A stretch of DNA of 32,094 bases, from contig JWZX01001440.1 of assembly GCA_001275005.1 (NCBI GenBank), positions 1 through 32,094 of the forward strand, in the 5' to 3' direction. Shown here one piece after another: positions 10,324 to 28,001 of the stretch (positions are counted from its first letter, which is position 1; each line of letters begins with the position of its first letter). Made by a program: the position numbers and the translations under genes. Below the pieces are notes generated by a model, which ran no database searches, was not told where the DNA came from, and worked only from the letters and a program-made list of their open reading frames with translations. Source of the DNA: Chrysochromulina tobinii (lineage: Eukaryota).

Positions 10324-13313
10324 TCACAGCTCTTCTTCCTCCGTCTCCTGATCAGTCACACGCCCGTCGTCCTCGGGCGCGTCGACTTCCGCATCGGGAA
10401 GGCTCGCCGCCGCAGCCTCTGCCCGGTCTGAGAGCTGCTTGACCAGCGCTGGCGGGAAGGCGGTGGACTCGTACAGGATAGAGTGGCGCCTCTTGAGCAC
10501 GCCGGGCTGGTGCGTCGCCTGCCATCAAGAGCCATCAAGAGCCATCAAGAGCCATCAAGAGCCATCAAGAGCCATCAAGAGGCCATCAAGAGCTATCAAG
10601 AGCCATCAAGAGGCCATCAAGGTGGCGCACCTGGTCCGCCTTCTGGTAGCTCGCGCAGATGGTCGCCCAATCCAGATCCAAGCGCGGCCCGACGTAGACA
10701 GGGAACCGAGGATAACCGTTCTCCATCAGCTCGGTGAATCGGTAGGTCACGACCGAGCCGACGGGCGGTGGGCTCTTTCGGTCGTGATCGGTCAGACCCG
10801 AGCCGCATGAGAACTGGCGTCCGTCGGGCGTCTCGAGCGTGAGTGCACCTGTGCGGAAGGCAATCCGTTGCAATCAGTAGGAATCAGTTGCGATCAGCGG
10901 GCGTCTCGAGCGTGAGTGCACCTGTGCGGAATGAATTCTTGCCCGCGCCGCCCTCGTGACCCACCACCTTGGCCTCCTCATCCTTCTGACTTTTCACCTG
11001 GGGTCATCAAGCAAAATCAAGCGCAATCAACATCGATCGAATGCGATCAATGGCACTCAAGCGCACTCGAGCGCAATCAAGCGCAATGAAGAGCTCTAAT
11101 CACCTTGAGCAGTGCTTGCTCAATGCTCATACTGCAATCCAGTGCAATCAAGTGCACTCAAGCGCACTCAAGCGCACTCACCTTGAGCAGGTGCTTGCTC
11201 CGGCAGTGCTCATACTGCAATCCAGTGCACTCAAGTGCACTCAAGCGCACTCAAGCGCACTCACCTTGAGCAGGTGCTTGCTCCGGCAGTGCTCATACTT
11301 GGAGCCGGGCCGACGAAGCATCAGCCCCTCGCCCCCACAGGCCTCCACCTTCGCGAGCTCGGCGCTCACGTGCGCACGGCCGGTGCATGTGATCGCGCCG
11401 ACGGGCGCAGCGTATGGCGTGCCAACAGCGGGAATCGATGAACTGCTCGTGCCCGCGACGGCGCCGGTCGAGTGGCTTGTACCGGCCCCGCCGCCGCTGA
11501 CGGTTGATGCTGATGCTGATGCTGATGCTGATGCTGATGCTGGTGCTGCGATGGCAGGGGCAGGGGCGGGTGCTGCTGCGATGGCGGGGGAGGGGATGGG
11601 TTGGATGCAAGACTGTATGAACTTGAGCCGCTCCTCGTATGGCTTGTCGAGCGCAGGGGCATCGAAGACGAGGTACGTGACGTACTGCGCCCGAGATAAG
11701 GTCGGATGCAGTCAGAGGCAACATCTTCCAATCATCAGAGGTCCTCAGAGACAATGCAGTGGCCCTTAGTGGCACTCGGAAGCAATCATCAGCAATCAGT
11801 GGCAATCAGTGGCAATCAGTGGCCCTTAGTGGCACTCGGAAGCAATCATCGGCAATCACGGCTGCTCTCTCACCTGCCACAGGTCACCCGAGGAGGCGGA
11901 GCGAACAATGGAGAGGCAGCGACGGAACTGATGGCGTCCCGCCCACAGCTCGCCATCGAGGGGAGTCGAGGGCAGCCCTAGCTTGAACCACGCGGGCGCC
12001 GGAAACGCATTCCCATTACGCGAGTAGAAGTTGGTGCCGTCCCAATACCTGAAGAGTGAGGCAATCAGAGGTCATCGGAGGTCTCGTCAGAGGTCTCGTC
12101 AGAGTTCGATCTCGCCCCAGTACGCGCGCACGCCGTCGAGCTTCTCGGAGATCAGCCACCCAGTCGGATCCACCTTTTTCGCATCGTACTTGTCGGCGAG
12201 CATGACCTGAGTGGCCTCCGCGGCCGAGGCAGCGTTTGCGAGGACTTGCACCACCGGACCAGACCCTTTGGCTGCTAGGAGCGTAGCATGCATCGCGGCT
12301 CCTGGAGTCACCGGCCCGCCCGCCGCGGCGGCGCTTGCCGCCCAGATCGCCGCTGCCTTCGAGGGCGAGCCCTTGTGTGCCTTGGACGCGCCCGCAGGCT
12401 GTACAGGCAGATTGGCAGGGTCGATGAGGAGATAGGGCGTCACGTCAGGTGGAGCACCGAGGCGTACGGCCTCCTGCACGAAGCCCTCACTCACGACGAG
12501 CGTACCTGTGGGGAAGAGGGGCGCCGTGATGAGCACTTGCATGCAAGGCCTCCTCGGCAGAGCGTTGCGACCCTCAGTCACGACGAGCGTACCCTTGCGC
12601 ATGGCCTCGAGCACCTTGTTCGTCGGGTTGTCTGCCTCGGCGGCCGTCGTGATGAGGTGAGTCGTGTCGCGTGTCACGCCCTGCATGTTGACGGTGGCAC
12701 CTTGCGAGCGCAGCCATGCCCAGAACTGCTTGCGCACCATGGACATTTGGCCCGAGACGCACACCACCATCGAGCCCAAAGGCTTTCCGTGCGGCGGAGG
12801 AGGCAACGGTGCGGGCGGCAACGGTGCGGGCGGCAACGGTGCGGGCGGCAACGGTGCGAGCGGCAACGGTGCGGGCGGCAACGGTGCGGGCGGCACCGGC
12901 GCGGCCGCAGGAGGAGCAAGAACAGGATGAGGCGGCGGTGCTGGATGCGACGACGGCGCAGCTGCTGCGCACGATGCGTGGCTGTACGGGCACTTATCGC
13001 CATCCTTGCAGTATCCCTTGGCAAAGTGCTTGCAATGAACGGTCGCTGCACGCGGCTTCTTCGCGGGAGGCATTGCCGCTGCTGCGGGTGCCTGCTTCTG
13101 CCCCGTCAGCTGCTGGCGTCGCACAGAGCGGATGGTACCTGTCGATGTGTTTGTCTGCTTCATGTCCTGTAAGTCGATCATGTAGGTGCTGCCGGCCGCA
13201 TCGACTCTGACCGACTTCTCGCCGCGAAAGTGGGCTGCTTCCAGATGAGCGTTGTGCCCGCTGTCAAAGTTCTTCCACTTACCGTCGCTCAGCTCATATG
13301 CCCACTGCGCCAT
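10324..13313 (-). CDS. Minimal ATP-dependent DNA ligase fused to N-terminal WWE, CCCH zinc finger, Pro-rich linker and BRCT domains (7 exons, ~728 aa)
   Basis: Hand-spliced exons 13313-12593, 12505-12124, 12048-11874, 11684-11265, 10997-10922, 10848-10631, 10518-10324 (2187 nt, all GT-AG, phases consistent). WWE: QWAYE..GKWKNFD..LEAAH..YMIDLQDMKQTN..TIRSVRR. CCCH: CKHFAKGYCKDGDKCPYSH. BRCT: VVCVSG..GATV..VTRDTTHLI..KGTLVVSEGFV. Ligase motifs: SEKLDGVR (I), SRNG, LDGELW (III), YLVFDAP (IIIa), EGLMLR (IV), LLKVK (V), PRFPVY (VI). Confidence 0.92.
10519..10630 (-). repeat. Ligase intron 6, made almost entirely of a 10-bp tandem repeat (sense TTGATGGCTC)
   Basis: About 10 copies of gccatcaaga between CAG|GTGCGC donor and TGGCAG|GCG acceptor. 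Confidence 0.9.
10849..10921 (-). other. Ligase intron 5 (73 nt), bracketed by an exact 34-bp duplication spanning AG|GT
   Basis: cgggcgtctcgagcgtgagtgcacctgtgcggaa at 10825-10858 and 10898-10931; CTGAT-type filler between the copies. Confidence 0.9.
10998..11264 (-). other. Ligase intron 4 (267 nt): TTGA(G/T)TGCGC 10-mers plus duplicated copies of the exon 4 end and donor
   Basis: 83-bp unit in tandem (11134-11216 and 11217-11299), third degenerate copy at 11100-11133; AGGTGA at both junctions. Confidence 0.85.
11685..11873 (-). other. Ligase intron 3 (189 nt) with CTGATTGCCA 10-mers and an internal 60-bp-period duplication
   Basis: CAG|GTGAG donor, CGCAG|TAC acceptor; cagtggcccttagtggcactcggaagcaatcatc at 11757 and 11817. 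Confidence 0.85.
12049..12123 (-). other. Ligase intron 2 (75 nt)
   Basis: Starts GTACTGGG while the next exon starts GTATTGGG (7/8 match); splicing restores KLDGVRAYWDG. Confidence 0.85.
12506..12592 (-). other. Ligase intron 1 (87 nt, in-frame and stop-free, hidden inside ORF 12099-13313)
   Basis: Its first 22 nt duplicate the first 22 nt of the next exon (1 mismatch), giving GTLVVTEG...GTLVVSEG in the unspliced ORF; it ends GCATGCAAGTGCTCATCACGGCGCCCCTCTTCCCCACAG. Confidence 0.85.
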
Positions 13314-13561
13314 CCTTTTTGCTTGGTGATAGCGCGCCCGAGGGACCTTTACATGTCGTGCTTGGCAAGAGCGCTCGCAAAGAGTTGAAACCCGGAATCG
13401 CGCGAAGAACCAAGCCCCTGCATCAAGCGCTCAATCTTTGATAACCCCGGAGAATGCACACGTTTCGCAGAAATCCGAGCTTCATCTCCCCAAATCGCCG
13501 ACACCGCCGCGTTCGTCGCCTCGCCTTACGCATCCGTCCGGCTGAACCGCCCTCTGAGAGA

Positions 13562-14495
13562 ATGTCAGGCCGTGCCAAGGCACTCTCGGGGCGCAACACA
13601 ATGAGCTCGCTACCAGGCGGCATCTTCGCAAAGCCTCCCGAGTATGATGGCCAGCAGATCCTTGCACAGAAGCAGGCGATCGAAGGTCAGGTCAACGGTC
13701 GGTACAACACCTCGTCCATCGCCGGCGGCATCTTTGCTGCCGGCCAAGGCTCACCCGCCGCCGAGGGACTCTTTGCGGCTGGCGGAGCTCGACTGTCACA
13801 CACTGCTATGGGTGCCGGAGCACGGCCTCAGAGCGCGGCGGGGCGCCCCTATGTCAACGAGTCCTCGGTCTCCGGAGGCATCTTCGAGCGGGACGAAGCC
13901 CCGTCGGCGCCATACCCTGGTAAGCGTCTGTTTCCTCCCACCTCGGACCCGTCAGTGCCCACCAACTTCAGACCGCGCGATCCTGGTCCTATTCTCGGCG
14001 GCGGTGGCCATCGGCAAGCGTGGGCTACCCCTGATGCCGCGGGCGGCCGTTCCAGCAACGCTCACCAGCTCCAGAGCGTACCGATGCGTGGCAACCTGCA
14101 CGGCAGACAGACGCAGCCAAGCTCGGGCGACGGGGCGTTCGCTCGATTTCTGAGCGAACACAGCGGCAACGGTAGCAGTGCGAGCGCCCCAAGCAGCGAG
14201 CTCTTCGAGCGAGCGCCGTATCGGGCGTCGTCCTCGGACCGCTCGCTAGCTCAGAACGACGCCTTCCTTGAGGCGGTCTCGGCCGCCGAGGAGCGCGACG
14301 AGGAGGATCTGCAGACGCTGGCGCAGCTGCGTGAGCTCGCCGAGCAGGAGGAGATCATCGAAGCTGCAGCCGCTCAGTTGGCGTTCGAGCAGCAGCTCGG
14401 GCCTGCGGAACAGGAAGCCCTGCGGATGGCGATGCTCGAGCGCGTGCGACACAAAGCTCGGACACTGCAGCAGCAGATGATGCAAAATCAGATGC

Positions 14496-14528
<33 letters not shown>

Positions 14529-15118
14529 TGCAGATGACCCAAGGCGACCATCTGATGAGGGCAAAGATGCAGCGCCAGCAACAGCGGCACTCCTCAGCGT
14601 ACTCTGAGTACGAGAACGCGGGCGGCGACGGCGCCGCTCATGGCCCGCCGCCCGCCGGGAGCCGACCCGCAGGCGGGCCGTCCGGCCATCTCCTGCACGG
14701 TCTGATGCGCGGGACGCCGCCGCCAGCAAGCCGGGGCACGCCTGGAATGGGCACGCTCCCCGGGATCTTGGCGTCATGTGGCGAGATCGTGCAGGAGCTC
14801 CCAAACCCAATCAAGGGGCGCGGCGCATTCAACCCTGCGGCCGGTGCCGACGGCGCCATGCCCACCGGCTTCGACACAGCCGATGCGGCGGGCCAGGCTG
14901 GTGGCGCAGCTGGCTGGAAAGCGGGCGGCGGCGGCGTCGCTGGCGGCCAGCACTATGCTCAGCTGAGGCTCGAGCATTACCACTCGCCGGCGAAGCAGCC
15001 TCCGATTGGCAAGCTCAAGCCCTACCGACCAGAGTCGCAGGTGAGCTTTGGCGGGCCCGCACGCATCCTGTACCCGAGCTCAGACGTCATGATCCGCGGC
15101 AAGTTCCCGGGCTACTGA
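13562..15118 (+). CDS. Hypothetical disordered protein with three SSxxGGIF motifs, central coiled coil and polyQ (~518 aa)
   Basis: Long ORF divergent from the ligase; SSLPGGIF, SSIAGGIF, SSVSGGIF; (CAG)n at ~14498-14527. The frame is open from 13454; ATG 13562 is preferred by composition. Confidence 0.75.
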
Positions 15119-15280: not shown

Positions 15281-15436
15281 TCGGTCATCATCTTTCAAGT
15301 TTCAACTTACATACTTACTTGAGCGCGGGGGGACCGCGACGAAACTGACTGATTTGCTGCATCAACTTACGATCAGGATCCGGCGGCAAGAGCAAGACGC
15401 TCACCCACAAGGTGTGGGCGCTCGGCCTCACGGTAC

Positions 15437-17335
15437 ATGTTGGGGACCGCCGTGCTACACGATGGCCTCGCGATGCGTCCTCCCATGGGATTCAATTCTT
15501 ACATAGGGCCATCCGGTGGTTTCGTCTGCGTCCCATCCTACGCCACGCCTCTTGCAAAGCCGCCACCCATGGCGCTGAACGATCAAGGATCCTCTGAACT
15601 AAATCATCTCTGCCCTGAAGGCCAGCTGCCTCATCCCACAGCTTACAAGGCGCTCAAGAACCCACCCCCCGGCTGGTCGACCGTCGGCGCGGCTCAAAAC
15701 ACAACCGACACTGCTCCTCCGCACTACTTGTACAATTCGGCCTTCCAAAATTTTGGGAACGGCGTCTCCAGCGTGAACGGCTCCGTCGTCGTCTCTCAGC
15801 CGATCCTCGAGCCCGACGGCTCTTTGAGCGGCGCGCACTCCCTTGCCGAGATTGCCGTGCAGTCCGCCGATCTGCTTCAAATCGTCGAGGTTGGATGGAT
15901 TGTGGGCTATCAAGGTCAGTATCTCGGGCCAAGCCCGACGCTCTTCGTGTTCCACTGGGTCGACGGCGTGGAAACCTGTTACAACGGCTGCGGCTGGGTG
16001 CAAGTCTCCACGACCAGAGTGCCAGGCATGACTCTGGATCCCTCCTCCGCACCTCGCGAGCTCGGCATTCGGTACTTCGAGGGCAATTGGTGGGTCCTCT
16101 TCGACGGCGAGTACATCGGGTACTTCCCTGGCTCACTCTGGGCCGGGGTGCAGCCCAAGTTTGACAGTGCGCATGTGGCCCAGTGGTTTGGGGAGGTGGT
16201 GTCAGAGAAATTGATCAAACCGACGACGCAGATGGGTAACGGCATATTCGGCGACCAGGCAGGTGCATGCCATTGGAGCCACTTGTCTTACTCGCAAGGA
16301 GACAAAACCCATTGGGCAAACCCACAATATGATGTGACCGACCCGACGCTCTATAACATCGGTCATAAAGGCGTCGATCACGGGTATGCATTCGGTGGCC
16401 CGGGCTATGTGCCGCCAGCGCCGCCAGCGCCGCCAGCGCCGCCAGCATCGCCTCCGTCTCCGCCAGCGCCACCAGCGTCGCCTCCGCCTCCGGGCCACGG
16501 GTGCCACGCGGCGTACGCACCAATCGAGCCTGCAGGGATCGCGCTCGGCTGGTTTTTGACGATTGCCACGCTGCTTGCGCCATCGCCGCAATACGTGGCT
16601 CTGTGCCGAAGCCGCAGCTCACATGGCATCTCGCTGCTCACGCCATTGCTCAACCTGGTATACGGCGTGCTCAACTTATGCAGTGCCATCCTCACCAAGT
16701 GGCCCTCCATTCAGCGCTGTGGCGATTCGTCGTTAGCGGGTGCATTTGAAGCTGATGGCTGCGTGGATCAGCTCCTCGACGTGTGGCAAGTCGCGATCAG
16801 CGCGCTCGGCCTCTCTGTCATCTTGGCCTTGGTGGTGCTCTTCCCGCCGCACAACTTTGCCAAGGAGCGTGCGCTCGTTGTCGTCACGCTTTGTTGCCTC
16901 GCCCTGACCATATTTGCCGCGTGCTACCTCAGCGCTCTCAGCCCGTGCTCGGAGGCGAGCCACACGCTGTCGCAGACCTTTGCAGTGCTCTCCGCCCTGA
17001 TCGTCGTCGTGGCCTTCGCGCCGCAGCTGTACGAGACATGGAGGACAAGGGGAGCTGGCTCCCTCTCGAGCCTCTACTACCTTATCCAATCGATAGGCAC
17101 CGCTCTCGTGGTGGTCCTGCAGCTTGTCGCGCTGCGCGACTCGATCCTCGTGTGGGGTCCGAACTCAATCTCAATGGCCGTGCAGGGCGGCATCTTCTCG
17201 ATGCTCTGCTACTACCGCCGCTGTGCGGGCCGTCGCAGCGGAGGTACCACGGGCGCCGATCCGCTGCTCGTCGTGCAGGAGTCCGCGCAGGCCGCCGCCG
17301 CGGTAAACGTTGGGCGATGGGCGCCGCTGACGTGA
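15437..17335 (+). CDS. Fusion protein: neprosin-family glutamic peptidase + Pro-rich linker + PQ-loop 7TM transporter (632 aa), with a GH27-like N-terminal fragment
   Basis: One stop-free ORF. Neprosin: CPEGQLP (pro-peptide end), HSLAEIAV, QIVEVGW, PTLFVFHW, CYNGCGWVQVS, GNWWV..EYIGYFPGSLW, AQWFGEV, TQMGNG, FGGPG. PQ-loop: LAPSPQY..RSRSSHGISL and AFAPQLYETWRTRGAGSLS, with about 7 hydrophobic segments. Confidence 0.88.
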   Translation: MLGTAVLHDGLAMRPPMGFNSYIGPSGGFVCVPSYATPLAKPPPMALNDQGSSELNHLCPEGQLPHPTAYKALKNPPPGWSTVGAAQNTTDTAPPHYLYNSAFQNFGNGVSSVNGSVVVSQPILEPDGSLSGAHSLAEIAVQSADLLQIVEVGWIVGYQGQYLGPSPTLFVFHWVDGVETCYNGCGWVQVSTTRVPGMTLDPSSAPRELGIRYFEGNWWVLFDGEYIGYFPGSLWAGVQPKFDSAHVAQWFGEVVSEKLIKPTTQMGNGIFGDQAGACHWSHLSYSQGDKTHWANPQYDVTDPTLYNIGHKGVDHGYAFGGPGYVPPAPPAPPAPPASPPSPPAPPASPPPPGHGCHAAYAPIEPAGIALGWFLTIATLLAPSPQYVALCRSRSSHGISLLTPLLNLVYGVLNLCSAILTKWPSIQRCGDSSLAGAFEADGCVDQLLDVWQVAISALGLSVILALVVLFPPHNFAKERALVVVTLCCLALTIFAACYLSALSPCSEASHTLSQTFAVLSALIVVVAFAPQLYETWRTRGAGSLSSLYYLIQSIGTALVVVLQLVALRDSILVWGPNSISMAVQGGIFSMLCYYRRCAGRRSGGTTGADPLLVVQESAQAAAAVNVGRWAPLT

Positions 17336-21868: not shown

Positions 21869-22668
21869 CGTTGGTAGTACGGTAGCACGAATGAGTCGCA
21901 ATGTAGGAGTCAGTTATAGAAGAGTTGTTTGAGAGTCGCCTACCCTACGGCTGAGCGACCGGAGAACGAGCCCGGTCTGTAAGTAAAAGTAGTAATTCAC
22001 GCCTCCAGGCAGCGTACACGTCTCACGGCGAGCCCGGACCGGCCAATTGGGGCCGGCGCGGGCGCCACCGGACGCGAAAAGCGCGATGGTCCGAGCTCCG
22101 ACACGGTTCATATCATAACCATGTTCAACTTTTCACACGTCATATGTGAGTCTGAGGCAGCCATCAGGTGGTGGAATAAGAGAGTACGTCTACGTTTCTA
22201 GAAGTGCAGCGCATGTTCTGCGCTTCGTTGGGGGTACGCTTGGCGTGTGTGCGAGCATCGCGGACGAGGCAGGGGCGTCGCGTGCCAAAACGTGGCAGGA
22301 ATTGGCCAAGGACCCCTCGAGGTGACCTGCCTTTGGGGGTTGTGCGCGCCGTTCACAGCTGCCGTTCACACCCCGAAGCTTTCTTTCCTTATCGAGCGCG
22401 CGATGGCTGAGGAGAACCTTGTTTGCCAGTGCTGAGCAGTCGGCTTCGCCAGCGAGTTGGCTCATCGCGCGCTCCGTCGCTCTTCGTGCTAAACGTGCGT
22501 CGGTGCGATCGCTGCACGGTCACACCGCACCGCCTTCGCACACGGAATACATCGAGTCCGCTCCCTGGTAGGTGCTTTCTTCCACGGAGCCCGCGGGGCA
22601 CTTCTGCATCTCAGTGCTGCCGAATACACACGCTGCCTAAGCCTCTCTTCTTCTCTCTTGTTCGCAGG

Positions 22669-24129
22669 ATGATCGCGATGCTCATCAACTGTGTAGCGGA
22701 GAAGACCAACGCCCACAGCGATAAAATCAACTCGGTCACCTTTTCGCCCGATGGCACGAAGATCGTGTCGGGATCGGCTGACGGGACGATCAAAGTCTGG
22801 GATTCGGGTGCGCTGCGCCCTCAAATCGCCCTTTCTTGGCCAAAACTGACGCCTGTGTTGGCTTGCCTGGCAGACAAGCTCGAGTTGCTGAGCGAGAAGA
22901 CGAACGCCCACAGCGACTACATCACGTCAGTCGCGTTTTCCCCAGACGGGGCCAAGATTGCGTCGGGATCGTACGACAGGACGATCATAGTCTGGGAATC
23001 GGGTGCGCCGGAGCCCTCAAAATCGCCCCTCCTTGGCCAAAACTGACGCCTGCTGGCTTGTCTGGCAGACAAGCTGGAGCTGCTGAGCGAGAAGACGGTC
23101 GCCCACAGCGACTGCATCAACTCGGTGACGTTTTCACCGGACGGAACCAAGATCGTCTCGGGATCGCACGACGGGACGATCAAAGTCTGGGATTCGGGTG
23201 CGCCGCGAGCTCAAAATCGCCCCTCCTTGGCCAAAACTGACGCCTGCTGACTTGTCTGGCAGGCAAACTGGAGCTGCTGAGCGAGAAGACGAACGCCCAC
23301 CGCGGTGCCTTAAAGGCAGTCGCGTGGGTCGCGTTTTCCCCGGACGGGACCAAGATCGTGTCTGCATCGGACGACAAGACTATCAAAGTCTGGGATTCGG
23401 GTGTGCCGAAGCCCTTAAAATCGCCTCTCCTTGGCCATAAACTAACGCCTGTTGGCTTGTCTGACAGACAAACTGGAGCTGTTGAGCGAGAAGACGAACG
23501 CCCACAGCGACTGCATCATGGTGGCGTTTTCCCCGGACGGGACCAAGATCGTGTCAGGATCGTGGGACAAGACGATCAAAGTCTGGGAATCTGGTGCGCC
23601 GAAGCCCTCAAAATTGCCCCTCCTTGGCCAAAACTAACGCCTGTTGGCTTGTCTGGCAGGCAAGCTGGAGCTGCTGAGCGTGAAGATGAACGCACACAGC
23701 CAAGAAATCACGTCGGTGGCGTTTTCCCCGGACGGGACCAAGATTGTGTCCGGATCGGACGACCAGACGATCAAAATCTGGGATTCGGGTGCGCCGGAGC
23801 CCTCAAAATCGCCCCTCCTTGGCCAAATCTGACGCTAGCTGGCTTGTCTGGCAGGCGCATTGGAGCTGTTGAGCGAGAAGACGGTCGCCCACAGCGACTG
23901 GGTCATGTCGGTCGCGTTTTCCCCGGACGGGGCCAAGATTGTGTCCGGATCGTACGACGGGACGATTAAAGTCTGGGATATGGTCAAGTGGTCTCGCAAA
24001 GATCATTTGATGTTCAATGATACCACCCAGCGATTCGTCTTGCTGCTGCTGTGGCTGAACAAATACAGTATGAAGTTTCCGGATGATGTGCTTGATCTAC
24101 TCATCGAAACTTGCTTGCAAAGCAGTTGA
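22669..24129 (+). CDS. WD40 protein, 7 near-identical repeats at one per exon, with C-terminal F-box-like helical tail (~354 aa)
   Basis: Exons 22669-22807, 22874-23002, 23069-23197, 23263-23400, 23468-23593, 23660-23788, 23855-24129 (1065 nt, open frame); six phase-1 GT-AG introns of 65-67 nt. Repeat consensus [42 protein letters not shown]. An acceptor just before the ATG suggests an upstream exon. Confidence 0.92.
22697..23979 (+). repeat. Tandem array of ~195-bp exon+intron units
   Basis: Intron consensus gtgcgccg.agccctcaaaatcgcccctccttggccaaaactgacgcctg.tggcttgtctggcag occurs six times. Confidence 0.95.
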
Positions 24130-24544
24130 GAGGTGTGGGGTGACGGCGGCTGGATGTGTCGCATCCGATCTGATCCACACGGGTCATGGCGCGCGCCGTT
24201 CTAGAGAGTCCTCGAGCAGTCGAATGATTCAGATTGACACGCATATGTTGACACAGGAACTTGTAAACTGCCTGTTAATTACTGGTACCACGTGCCCCAG
24301 GTATGGGGTACCACGCGAAAAATGCAATGCCAAATCCTGTCGTGTTAACGTTCACACACACGTTCACACCTCTTGCGGGGAGAAAAAACCGAGCTGAACT
24401 GTGTGTGGAGACCGCGCGCGTAAAACATGGGCCGCGTGCTCTTGAAGGAGCTCCGCAACGCGGCGCCGCGCGCGCCTTCCGACCGCCTTTCGACCGACAA
24501 CGTGCGACCACTGGTCCTCTGCAGGCTCTCACAGATAAATCCGA

Positions 24545-27500
24545 ATGAGGCGGCGGAAAATCAAAATTGGGTGGCCACGGCACGTTCAGATGAGTTTGGT
24601 GCACGAACGGAGGGCGGAGGCGAGGGTTGGTGCGCAGCTGATGCAGGCGCTGCAGGCGCAGGTGGTACAACTGACGAACCGTGTTTCTACCCTAGACGAA
24701 GCTCTCCTTGCCGAGCGTCGGGAAAACGAACAGCTGTCTCAAGAACGAGCAGAACGGCTTCGGGCGCAGGCGGAGGCGTCTGAGAACGCGTTGCGCGACC
24801 AGTTCCGAGCACTGTCGGCTCGGGTAGAAGCGCAAGTGGATCAAGGCGAGAAATCTCTTCGAGACTATCCTTCTCAGTTACGTGCCCAGGCGGACGCGTC
24901 GGAGGGGGTGCTCCGGCAGGAGATTGCGCGCCTGCGCTCGGAGGCAGCCGTTTCGCTCTCCGCCGCCAGCCCAAACTCGAGTCGTCCCCCGACTGTTGCG
25001 GAGCTGGGCCTCCGAGTGGAAGCGCTCAAGCAGTTGAAGGAGAGTGGCGTTCCAGCCTTCCCAGCTAAGGAACTTGGGTATACGCTCATGGAGCTACGGC
25101 TTGCAGGCTACTCGTTTGCGGAAGTGAGGCTCATACCCGGGTATACGCTCGCCGAGATCAAGGCCGTTGGGTACGTCGAGGGCCTCAAGGCGGCCGGGAT
25201 TAAGTGTGACGACGCCAAGGCGGCCGGCTACACGCTCGCCGAGATGAGAGCGGGTGGCTTCACGTGCGCCGATGCCAAGACGGCCGGCTACACGCTCGCC
25301 GAGATGAGAGCGGGTGGCTTCACGTGCGCCGACGCCAAGGCGGCCGGGTTCGTCGAGGGCCTCAAGGCGGCGGGCTTCACGTGCGTGGAGGCCAAGGCGG
25401 TCGGCTACACGCTTGCGGAGATGAGAGCGGATGGCTTCACGTGCGCTCAGGCCAAGATGGCCAGCTACACGCTCACAGAGATGAGGGCAGACGCATACAC
25501 GTGCCTCGAGGCGAAGACGGCCGGCTACACGCTTGAGGAGATGAGAGCGGGTGGCTACAACTGCGCCGAGGTCAAGGCGGCTGGCTACACATGTGTCGAA
25601 GCCAAGGCGGCGGGCTACACGCTCAAGGAAATGAGGGGCGCTGCGCCGGCCGCCGGGCCTGCTACCAGTGGCTTTTCATTCGGTGCGCCACCTGCATCCG
25701 CTGCGCCCGCTGTGCCCGCTGCGCCGGCGACGGGGGGCTTTTCGTTCACTGCGGTCGGCAACCCGCCTAGCACTCCGGTCACCGCGCCTGCTACCAGTGG
25801 GTTTTCATTCGGTGCGCCCGCTGCGCCCGCTGCGCCGGCTGCGCCGGCGACGGGTGGCTTTACGTTTACTGCGCTCGGCAACACGCCTTGCACGACGACC
25901 GCCGCGCCTGCTACAAGTGGCTTTTCATTTGCTGCGCCAGCAACAGTTGGCAAAGGACGAGGACGAGGACGAGGCACCAGCACGCCGGCCTCCGCGCCTG
26001 CTACAAGTGGGTTTTCATTCGGTGCGCCCGCTGTGCCAGCGACGGGTGGCTTATCATTTGCTGTAGTCGGCAGCCCGCCTGGCGACCAAGCAGGGCCTCG
26101 CCCGTCTTTCAAGGCAAAGCGGCCCGCAAAACCAGCCTTTGGCAGCCCCGCCGCCGGCTCTGGTTCACCGCCGGCACCAACCACTGGAACTCTGGCGGCG
26201 GCAGTCCCTTTGTCAAACGCCGCCCTGGAAAAGCTACACACGGCGGTGAAGGAGAACCAGTTGGCCGATGTGAAAACTCTGCTCGCCTCGGGCTCAAACC
26301 TAGTCAACATGGCTGATGACAACGGGATGACGGCACTCATCTGGGCTGCATCCAAGGGCCATGGTGAGATGGTCGGAGTCCTCCTCGAATTCGGCGCGGA
26401 CAAGAAAGCGGTGACGAAAAAGGGCAATAACGCACTGCAGGCAGCCAAAATGGGTCAAGAACAGGCTCCCGGCGACGCGCGTTTCGACCATGCTATCCGA
26501 ATTCTAGAAGCCCCGCCCGGACTCAAGCTCGAAGGTGGCTCGCTGCCAGGAAATGCGGCCAAATACGGTGGCACCTACAAGCTTGATCCGAGGAAGCTTG
26601 TAAACGGCCGGCCCGCGTATCAGCACACGAGCGATGCAACTTGCTGGATTGCGTTCGCTGGAGACCGCTGGATGGGGCTGCCTGAGTCGCTACTTGGTGA
26701 GAAGAAGGGCTTCCTGGACCTAACAGACTCAGCTGCTGCTTCGCCCGACGTGAGTGCCAAGACATGGAAGGTGAGCGGCAGAGCGGGCTCTGGTTGGGTT
26801 GAGGCGCCGCAGCTCAAGTGCACTGCTTGGACGCCGCCGCCGCCGCCACTCGCCGCCGAGCCCGTCGGTGCAATGGCTGGTAGTTCGGCGGGCTTTTACA
26901 CATGCGCCGAGGCCAAGACGGCAGGCTTCACGCTTACTGAGATGAGAACGAGCGGGTACACATGCGCCGACGCCAAGGCGGCCGGGTTCGTCGAGGGCCT
27001 CAAGGCGGCGGGGTTCACTTGCCTCGAGGTGAAGACGGTCGGCTACACGCTCGCGGAAATGAGAGTGGGTGGCTTCACATGCGCCGAGGTCAAGGCGGCC
27101 GGGTACGTCACGGGCCTCAAGGAGGCCGGCTACACGTGCCTCGAGGTGAAGGCGGCCGGCGGTGGCTTCACGTGCGCCGACGCCAAGGCGGCCGGGTTCG
27201 TCGAGGGCCTCAAGGCGGCGGGGTTCACTTGCCTCGAGGTGAAGACGGTCGGCTACACGCTCGCGGAGATGAGAGTGGGTGGCTTCACATGCGCCGAGGT
27301 CAAGGCGGCCGGGTACGTCACGGGCCTCAAGGAGGCGAGCTACACGTGCCTCGAGGCGAAGGCGGCCGGCTACACGCTCGCAGGGATGAGAGCAGGCGGA
27401 TACAATAGCACCGAGGTCAAGGCGGCCGGCTACACACTTGCGGAGATGAGAGTGGGAGGGTACACCGAGGGCCTCAAGGCGCTCGGCTACACGTGCGCCG

Positions 27501-28001
27501 AGGCGAAGGCGGCCGGGTACGTCATGGGCCTCAAGGAGGCGGGCTACACATGCGCGGAGGCCAAGGCAGGCAATTACACGTGCGCTCAGGTCAAGATGGC
27601 AGGGTATACGCTCGCAGAGATGAGAGCAGCCGGCTTCACGTGCGCCGAGGCGAAGGCGGCCGGGTTCAATCCCAAGGAGTCCATGCAGGCTGGCTTCACC
27701 TACCAAGAGGGGCTTGCGGTGGGTTATCCTTCCCATATCGATGGCCATCCTACCAATGTTACGTCGTGGAACTTCGGTATGCAACCACCGCGACTCGAAT
27801 CGACGATCTCCCTCCCCGCGCTCCCACCGCCTCCGCGCGCGCGCCCCTCAGTCCAGCGTCCAATGAGGCGGGCCGCGGCGCTGCGTGCGGCCCGCGCCCT
27901 GCGTGCGGCTTGCTGGCGTAGTGACCCTTGCTGCAGACTCACGCCCGCTCGTGTGCGCGCATGGCGCAGGGGTTTATGACTGGAATGGGAACGATTTGTG
28001 A
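24545..28001 (+). CDS. Mosaic repeat protein (~1090 aa): coiled coil, Cys-containing decapeptide repeats, GFSFG repeats, ankyrin repeats, small beta-rich domain, second decapeptide array
   Basis: ORF 24545-27979. AG(Y/F)TxxExKA decapeptides at ~25070-25635 and ~26890-27725; ATSGFSFGAP repeats ~25660-26060; ankyrin DNGMTALIWAASKGHGEMVGVLLEFGAD. A probable last intron 27777-27969 (GTATGC...CTCAC...CGCAG) gives the C-terminus NFGVYDWNGNDL* ending at 28001. Start uncertain (24545, 24590 or 24641). Confidence 0.85.

Follow-up and report, generated by a model that had tools for sequence, protein, structure and literature searches.

In a window of 32,094 nucleotides (nt) from Chrysochromulina tobinii (positions 1 to 32,094 of the forward strand of contig JWZX01001440.1, assembly GCA_001275005.1), we found a transcribed, seven-exon gene on the minus strand, running from an ATG at 13313 to a TGA that ends at 10324, that encodes a DNA ligase with WWE, CCCH and BRCT modules ahead of its catalytic core. 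The core belongs by sequence to ligase E (Lig E) and not to the LIG1, LIG3 or LIG4 families. Judging from its residues and from comparison with its relatives, the protein is likely to be a nuclear, nick-sealing eukaryotic ligase E that is guided to breaks by poly(ADP-ribose) (PAR) through its WWE domain.

A ligase E core behind three N-terminal modules

Joining the exons (13313-12593, 12505-12124, 12048-11874, 11684-11265, 10997-10922, 10848-10631 and 10518-10324, all minus strand) gives a coding sequence of 2187 nt with a single open frame of 728 amino acids. An original prediction, made from the DNA letters alone, had placed WWE, CCCH and BRCT modules N-terminal to an adenylation-OB ligase, and Pfam searches of the spliced protein recovered exactly this arrangement. 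In particular, the protein opens directly, with no leader, at a WWE domain (13116..13310, minus strand, as are all features of the gene; residues 2-66; E 7e-17, and alignable to RNF146 structure 3V3L), which is followed by a basic KKPR stretch (13050..13061; residues 85-88). The next element is a single CCCH finger of spacing C-x8-C-x5-C-x3-H (12975..13040; residues 92-113, Pfam match 92-112 at E 1.5e-5). A proline-rich linker (12786..12974; residues 114-176), corresponding to a stretch of the relative P0004 that is predicted at a local distance difference score (pLDDT) below 50, leads to a BRCT domain that is interrupted by intron 1 (12417..12785; residues 177-270; E 2e-4). The catalytic core consists of an adenylation domain (11265..12221, across introns 2 and 3; residues 336-566; DNA_ligase_A_M match), with a low-complexity insert at about residues 452-512, and an OB domain of the Lig E type (10673..10997, across intron 5; residues 567-650; DNA_ligase_OB_2, E 2e-21). 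An extension common to the eukaryotic clade described below and then an acidic tail complete the protein (10324..10672, across intron 6). P0004 has all five domains and a core that is 82% identical, and the nearest named relative, P0006 of Prymnesium parvum, has the WWE, the BRCT and a core that is 72% identical, without the CCCH finger.

The core pairs PF01068 (adenylation) with PF14743 (OB), and its motifs I, Ia, III, IIIa, IV, V and VI are intact, as had been predicted: K362 (codon 12141-12143), D364, G365, R367, R378, D399, E401, F433, D434, E545, G546, K566, K568 and P638-R639-F640 are all present, at positions that are nearly invariant across 206 cores. Profile, fold and tree comparisons all bore out the prediction of a minimal core of the Lig E type. 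The NCBIfam model PRK09125 (cut-off 200) scored 282 bits for P0004 and 289 bits for P0006, as compared with 19 bits from the LIG1-type model TIGR00574 (cut-off 218); the OB exon of the window protein alone scored 73 bits with PRK09125, so that the family call for the window protein is made via P0004. No Pfam match to the LIG1/LIG3/LIG4 DNA-binding domain or to a PF04679-type OB domain was found in the window protein or its orthologues, and alignment of the OB domain to Lig E revealed no long insert that could be a latch. The solved structures that the core matches best, by sequence and by fold alike, are those of three Lig E enzymes from bacteria (4D05, 6GDR and 8U6X). The predicted model of P0004 superposes on 6GDR with a root-mean-square deviation of 2.0, a template-modelling score of 0.92 on the target and an E-value of 3e-27, versus about 1e-10 for LIG1, LIG3 and LIG4 structures. 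The likeness to chlorovirus ligases that had also been suggested did not hold up, the Chlorella-virus enzyme being a far weaker match than Lig E by fold as well as by sequence (E 4e-4). Of the two DNA-binding motifs described for Lig E, G-K-G-K-aromatic and F-basic-I-G-S-G-F-x-D (PMC6144786), the window protein has the versions G-A-G-K and F-S-C-G-S-G, in which the glycines, the second lysine, the F and the D are kept.

Candidate ADP-ribose and phosphate readers

When the WWE domain is aligned to that of RNF146 (3V3L), Y6, W13, Y44, Q53 and R62 fall on Y107, W114, Y144, Q153 and R163. Y107, Y144, Q153 and R163 of RNF146 hold the adenosine unit of PAR (PMC8853533), and all four are identical in the window protein (the numbering was set from the alignment, and the residue types agree). 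Across the eight WWE-bearing ligases that we found, Q53 and R62 are kept in every protein, an aromatic residue stands at the first position in seven and a tyrosine at the second in six. The second, phosphoribose pocket is kept in part, W13 corresponding to W114, and a low-complexity linker follows the domain.

The BRCT domain, which was modelled at a pLDDT of 94, probably binds a phosphate, as predicted from its sequence and model. Its putative pocket (S187, G188, R194 and K233) resembles the phosphate pocket of XRCC1, formed by S328, R335 and K369 (PMC4538820), and the spacing from S187 to R194 equals that from S328 to R335. The pocket is well kept among the ligases: in 35 of their BRCT domains the first position is S or T in all, the G is kept in 34, the R in 31 and the K in all, and the corresponding columns in TopBP1 read T/G, R and K. 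Although the phosphate pocket is shared, the BRCT is not especially like the first BRCT of XRCC1 (BRCT1), with which the original prediction had compared it; among BRCTs, XRCC1 BRCT1 ranks 40th by sequence profile and 33rd by structural Z-score, and fourth by Foldseek E-value, where the leading hits are near ties.

Reader domains recur across ligase E

A phylogeny of the core groups the window protein with the ligase E proteins of rotifers, Planoprotostelium and Mortierellaceae. In a tree of 89 rows, from which near-duplicates and most bacterial loci had been thinned out, the window protein and 26 other eukaryote-type rows (27 of 27) form one clade with a support of 99 by the Shimodaira–Hasegawa-like approximate likelihood ratio test (SH-aLRT); the clade includes proteins of Adineta steineri, Planoprotostelium, Podila, Vannella, Rigifila and Didymoeca. 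A tree of 206 rows, to which 141 of 145 new representatives were added, places the window protein with these taxa again, in a clade of 53 rows (SH-aLRT 92), and puts other eukaryotic rows outside it, and a single clade of all eukaryotic ligase E, which held in the smaller tree, failed in the larger. (Note that both trees are quick ones without bootstrap, that they sample the top of two similarity searches and not the whole family, and that kinetoplastid, Chlorella-virus and LIG1/3/4 sequences were compared by profile and fold only.) Core identity to the Adineta steineri, Planoprotostelium and Podila proteins is 51-54%. The closest bacterial cores are those of Myxococcota and Planctomycetota, with a median identity of 52% (80 loci kept of 595), and the proteobacterial Lig E enzymes have a median of 39%. 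Proteins of Cymbomonas and Stephanopyxis, and a second Mastigamoeba protein, fall in the 206-row tree among bacterial and viral rows that bear an N-terminal finger.

The architecture search that had been proposed found the fusion in P0004 and P0006 and in eight WWE-ligases overall. Within the 53-row clade, 32 of the 53 rows carry a PBZ, WWE or Macro domain, and 42 do when BRCT is included; one row was unscanned, among the ten remaining rows several are short or incomplete, and the domain scans covered 112 of the 145 new representatives. The WWE is N-terminal in three close rows, in the Cymbomonas protein and in the Stephanopyxis transcript, and C-terminal in the three others. The eight WWE-bearing proteins require at least five changes on the tree, and their union in one clade was rejected by the approximately unbiased (AU) test (p-AU 1e-55, 67 rows), the group having been defined from Pfam ahead of the test; repeated loss could produce this distribution too. 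Among the remaining relatives are fusions to FHA (P0025), to a family X polymerase (Pol X; P0226, P0233 and P0263), to WGR, and to WGR together with a PARP catalytic domain (P0088). Because the eight WWE-ligases do not form one clade and because in relatives the core is combined with PBZ, Macro, FHA, Pol X or PARP domains, these comparisons point to a repeated coupling of ligase E to ADP-ribose signalling. That three unrelated ADP-ribose readers are found on a single core is, among the sequence comparisons made here, the strongest argument for PAR-guided repair.

Several of these fusions deserve separate mention. The Pol X fusions are metagenome proteins in which ligase E and the polymerase occur in both orders. 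P0153 of the green alga Cymbomonas and P0207 of the diatom Stephanopyxis are separate WWE-BRCT-ligase E fusions, and P0207 has an extra U-box, so that a PAR reader and an E3 are paired on a ligase much as they are in RNF146. The Myxococcota and Planctomycetota proteins (L001-L080 and P0033-P0124) mostly have an N-terminal Cys/His finger, which we take to be SWIM-like, and a C-terminal WGR, of which P0190 has up to four copies. As to the source of the WWE-CCCH part of the window protein, three near-copies were the only longer proteins sharing it among 294 candidates; this search thus gave no donor, which counts as weak evidence.

A model for PAR-guided nick sealing

These features suggest how the protein might work. 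A PARP would mark a break, and the WWE, on its long proline tether, would bind the adenosine unit of the resulting PAR chain. The BRCT could make a second phosphate contact, on PAR or on the DNA end, and so offset the missing DNA-binding domain. By analogy with Lig E and with AvLigE, the ligase E of the rotifer Adineta vaga, K362 would be adenylated by ATP, the AMP passed to the 5' phosphate and the nick sealed, presumably after its cleaning by Pol X and PNKP. The protein would thereby take the last step that LIG3-XRCC1 takes in vertebrates, without being LIG3. The original prediction of a PAR-recruited break-repair ligase is therefore the most likely one, strengthened by the comparative evidence, but its description as self-contained went too far: a PARP domain is missing from the protein, as is a scaffold like XRCC1 on which Pol beta or PNKP could assemble.

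A number of observations nevertheless weigh against PAR guidance, or at least against its simplest form. RNF146 R110 and R161, arginines whose roles we assume from general knowledge, correspond to S9 and T60 here, and the C-terminal extension of RNF146 is absent; because of these losses the WWE may have no preference for PAR over mono-ADP-ribose or ATP. Of the closest clade's 14 rows only three have a WWE, most having a BRCT alone or SAM-BRCT, and the clade therefore does without a WWE. By sequence and model, the BRCT is closer to BRCTs that bind phosphopeptides or DNA than to XRCC1 BRCT1: a profile built from 11 of the ligase BRCTs scores LigA at 40.7, PARP1 at 39.6 and XRCC1 at 24.7 bits, with TopBP1 also above XRCC1, and the model gives Z-scores of 14.8 for Rad4, 14.1 for TopBP1, 13.6 for PARP1 and 11.8 for XRCC1. 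In the DNA-binding motifs of Lig E, two basic residues are replaced by A584 and S605 in the window protein, at positions that both vary in the family, and we looked for an association between the presence of a BRCT and the loss of these residues and found none. Intron 1 is unspliced in contigs of three of the six RNA runs analysed, and its retention would insert 29 amino acids into the BRCT. P0207 is known from the transcriptome of a diatom, a group in which two genomes are reported to lack PARPs (PMC2964712). Finally, PMC10665377, in the sections covered here, gives no PAR-binding test for the PBZ of rotifer ligase E, and it reports that Adineta has LIG3 in addition to ligase E, which is therefore no plain replacement for LIG3.

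Alternative explanations

The alternative that survives best, though we regard it as unlikely, is that the ligase is targeted by the BRCT alone, to 5'-phosphate DNA ends or to a phosphorylated partner, and that the WWE and CCCH are passengers of domain shuffling. The BRCT is the steady partner of the core in the closest clade (12 of 14 rows), its best fits are the LigA, PARP1 and TopBP1/Rad4 domains noted above, and these algae also attach SAM, UBA, SAP, ankyrin and U-box domains to the ligase. Passengers, however, would not readily account for WWE pocket residues that are kept across separate fusions, for the recurrence of three unrelated ADP-ribose readers on the same core, or for a WWE that is common to the window gene, P0004 and the Prymnesium protein, the latter with a core identity of 72%.

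The original prediction had also raised the possibility of a ligase acting on RNA-containing or viral substrates, with the CCCH and WWE used as in ZAP and PARP12. We consider this very improbable. The best matches of the finger are indeed RNA-binding CCCH proteins (finger 2 of CPSF30 in the PDB), CCCH and WWE do occur together in PARP7, PARP12 and PARP13 (PMC4245714), and Lig E-like genes gave 142 matches on viral contigs. Yet the finger is present in only two of the eight WWE-ligases and absent from the Prymnesium orthologue, and it is best described as a lineage-specific extra. Whereas ZAP/PARP13 and PARP12 likewise combine a CCCH finger with a WWE, the window protein differs from them in order, number and packing, in having a CPSF30-like finger and in having no PARP domain; in ZAP a finger and the tandem WWEs behind it pack as one folded unit (PMC8853533), and here one finger follows one WWE with a linker between them. 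The OB domain is of the DNA-ligase type without the Chlorella-virus latch, viral rows do not adjoin the window protein in either tree, and the neighbouring genes are cellular. (We also considered that the finger might be a PBZ; its spacing is that of a CCCH and it has no PF10283 match, which rules this out.)

An organellar ligase, comparable to the kinetoplast ligases, has little to recommend it and is, in our estimation, a remote prospect. Kinetoplastid ligase K has both core domains and may be that group's ligase E (PMC10665377), but the first methionine of the window protein leads directly into the WWE, RNA contigs start about 30-50 nt upstream of it, and rotifer ligase E is nuclear. The KKPR stretch also argues against an organelle; we take it, from its pattern and not from a prediction tool, to be a possible nuclear localisation signal, and a K-[KR]-x-[KR] stretch precedes the core in 10 of the 12 members of the clade that were checked, a count made without a chance control.

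Transcription and splicing of the ligase gene

The six introns (12506-12592, 12049-12123, 11685-11873, 10998-11264, 10849-10921 and 10519-10630, in transcript order) all begin with GT and end with AG. As the original prediction had proposed, each of them is removed: contigs from six RNA runs skip intron 1 in two runs, introns 2, 3 and 6 in all six, intron 4 in four and intron 5 in three, and contigs of a DNA run (X1) skip none of the six. The junctions of intron 4 rest on 24-30 letters on their short side, and the six RNA runs share year and kind and so may represent one campaign. Upstream of the gene, the bin 13376-13492 is empty in every one of the six RNA runs and fully covered in DNA, providing a built-in silent control; the uncovered RNA-contig bins at 11495-11607, where repeats were skipped, were excluded from the evidence. 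Unspliced forms of introns 1, 4 and 5 occur as well. Intron 1 (87 nt) is in frame and without stops, and its retention might be a switch or might reflect mere slow splicing.

The prediction that the WWE and BRCT exons are transcribed together with the ligase exons is likewise supported, in that the WWE, the CCCH and the first half of the BRCT lie in one stop-free exon, the BRCT and ligase exons are joined within contigs of RNA runs X15 and X17, and P0004 and P0006, from two other organisms, have the same WWE-BRCT-ligase fusion. No single RNA contig covers the whole span from WWE to BRCT, and both RNA and DNA contigs break in the proline repeat at about 12830-12866, where a 15-nt unit is repeated. 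That the gene model wrongly joins two genes, or that the gene is dead, is hardly credible: the missing contig from WWE to ligase and the unspliced introns would fit such an error, but against it stand the splicing of all six introns in RNA, the uninterrupted reading frame, the complete set of motifs and the same fusion in two relatives.

Intron 1 has a 16-nt exact repeat at its borders, intron 5 (73 nt) has a 34-nt exact repeat across its borders, and intron 4 contains two more copies of the end of exon 4 that include the donor site. Judged from these repeats, the introns look like gains through local duplication. The introners described in Chrysochromulina have target repeats of 4 bp, far shorter than the border repeats of introns 1 and 5 (bioRxiv 2022.06.06.494994).

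Genomic neighbourhood

Six of the 11 neighbouring frames have a match, and these include a staphylococcal-nuclease homologue, HisIE, a 2OG-Fe(II) oxygenase, a neprosin-PQ loop protein, and WD40 and ankyrin proteins. The introns and these ordinary cellular neighbours led us to reject a viral or inserted origin of the ligase gene. Head to head with it lies a transcribed gene (13445-15118, plus strand) without a Pfam family, with about 140 nt between the RNA contigs of the two (in the interval 13376-13600). Further along the plus strand are an intron-free frame of 660 amino acids with neprosin peptidase and PQ-loop transporter domains (15353-17335), a series of near-identical WD40 repeats interrupted by short repeated introns (22411-24000), and a frame of 1146 amino acids with many decapeptide repeats (PF25296), ankyrin repeats and FG-like 'SGFSFG' stretches (24539-27979).

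Significance and relation to known systems

Eukaryotic ligase E, also called 'LigK', has been described in rotifers, fungi, protists and a few animals, in some cases with PBZ fingers (PMC6264785, PMC10665377), most of the eukaryotic proteins being without PBZ. AvLigE, from a radiation-resistant rotifer, is nuclear, is induced by X-rays alongside Pol beta, PNKP and PARP2 and seals nicks, and human cells that were given it tolerated radiation better (PMC10665377). A minimal ligase that carries a PAR reader thus has a precedent, which the original prediction of an equivalent of the PARP-XRCC1-LIG3 arm had missed. What is added here is the WWE-BRCT form of ligase E and the repeated reader fusions. 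A literature search of text, aimed at the fusion and its host, found no paper on a WWE-bearing, BRCT-bearing or haptophyte ligase E. The words 'WWE', 'BRCT' and 'haptophyte' are absent from the main text and text supplements of PMC10665377 (a statement that does not extend to its Fig. 2 drawings and 502-sequence tree), and the compared portion of its species table has no haptophyte. A drawing of a Symbiodinium protein in group 1 of PMC10665377 and PMC6264785 may show a BRCT.

LIG3 is patchy outside vertebrates (PMC4488670), which raises the question of what seals PARP-marked breaks in most eukaryotes. PBZ-bearing ligase E was formerly read as a stress adaptation of rotifers and one fungus; because WWE, Macro and BRCT domains occur on the same core in separate lineages, sequence comparison suggests that ADP-ribose reading is the general point of the eukaryotic enzyme, an idea that is cheap to test on a ligase with its candidate reader in the same chain. 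We put forward, tentatively and with more doubt than conviction, the broader idea that ligase E makes up a fourth, so far overlooked family of repair ligases in the nucleus, serving as the PARP-coupled step of single-strand break repair across microbial eukaryotes without LIG3 and recurrently recruiting interchangeable readers of ADP-ribose (PBZ, WWE, Macro and BRCTs with a phosphate pocket). On this idea the clade of haptophyte, choanoflagellate, amoebozoan, CRuMs, fungal and rotifer proteins may be old and not the product of recent transfers, and the coupling to PARP may start in bacteria, with the WGR and PARP fusions. Given the effect of AvLigE on human cells, a compact self-targeting ligase is of practical interest.

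Among known systems, the window protein is closest to AvLigE and to MvLigE of Mortierella, with which it shares the PF01068 and PF14743 core, the absence of a DNA-binding domain, its clade in the trees and an ADP-ribose reader on a disordered tether; the reader is a C-terminal PBZ in those proteins, whereas here WWE, CCCH and BRCT are N-terminal and there is no PF10283 match. With the proteobacterial Lig E enzymes of Psychromonas (4D05), Alteromonas (6GDR) and Neisseria (8U6X) (PMC6144786) it shares the two-domain core without a latch, but it differs in lacking a signal peptide, in its extra domains, in the two DNA-binding motifs and in the median core identity given above. The leaderless Lig E proteins of Myxococcota and Planctomycetota, previously noted beside fungal sequences (PMC8455567), have the closest bacterial cores and a PARP-type WGR module, in one case with a whole PARP (P0088); unlike the window protein they have an N-terminal Cys/His finger, and no WWE was found in the rows examined. 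With LIG3-XRCC1, the window protein likely shares its job, that of a PAR-recruited nick-sealing ligase, and it differs in its unrelated core, in having no DNA-binding domain, no PARP-type zinc finger and no scaffold, and in combining reader and ligase in one chain.

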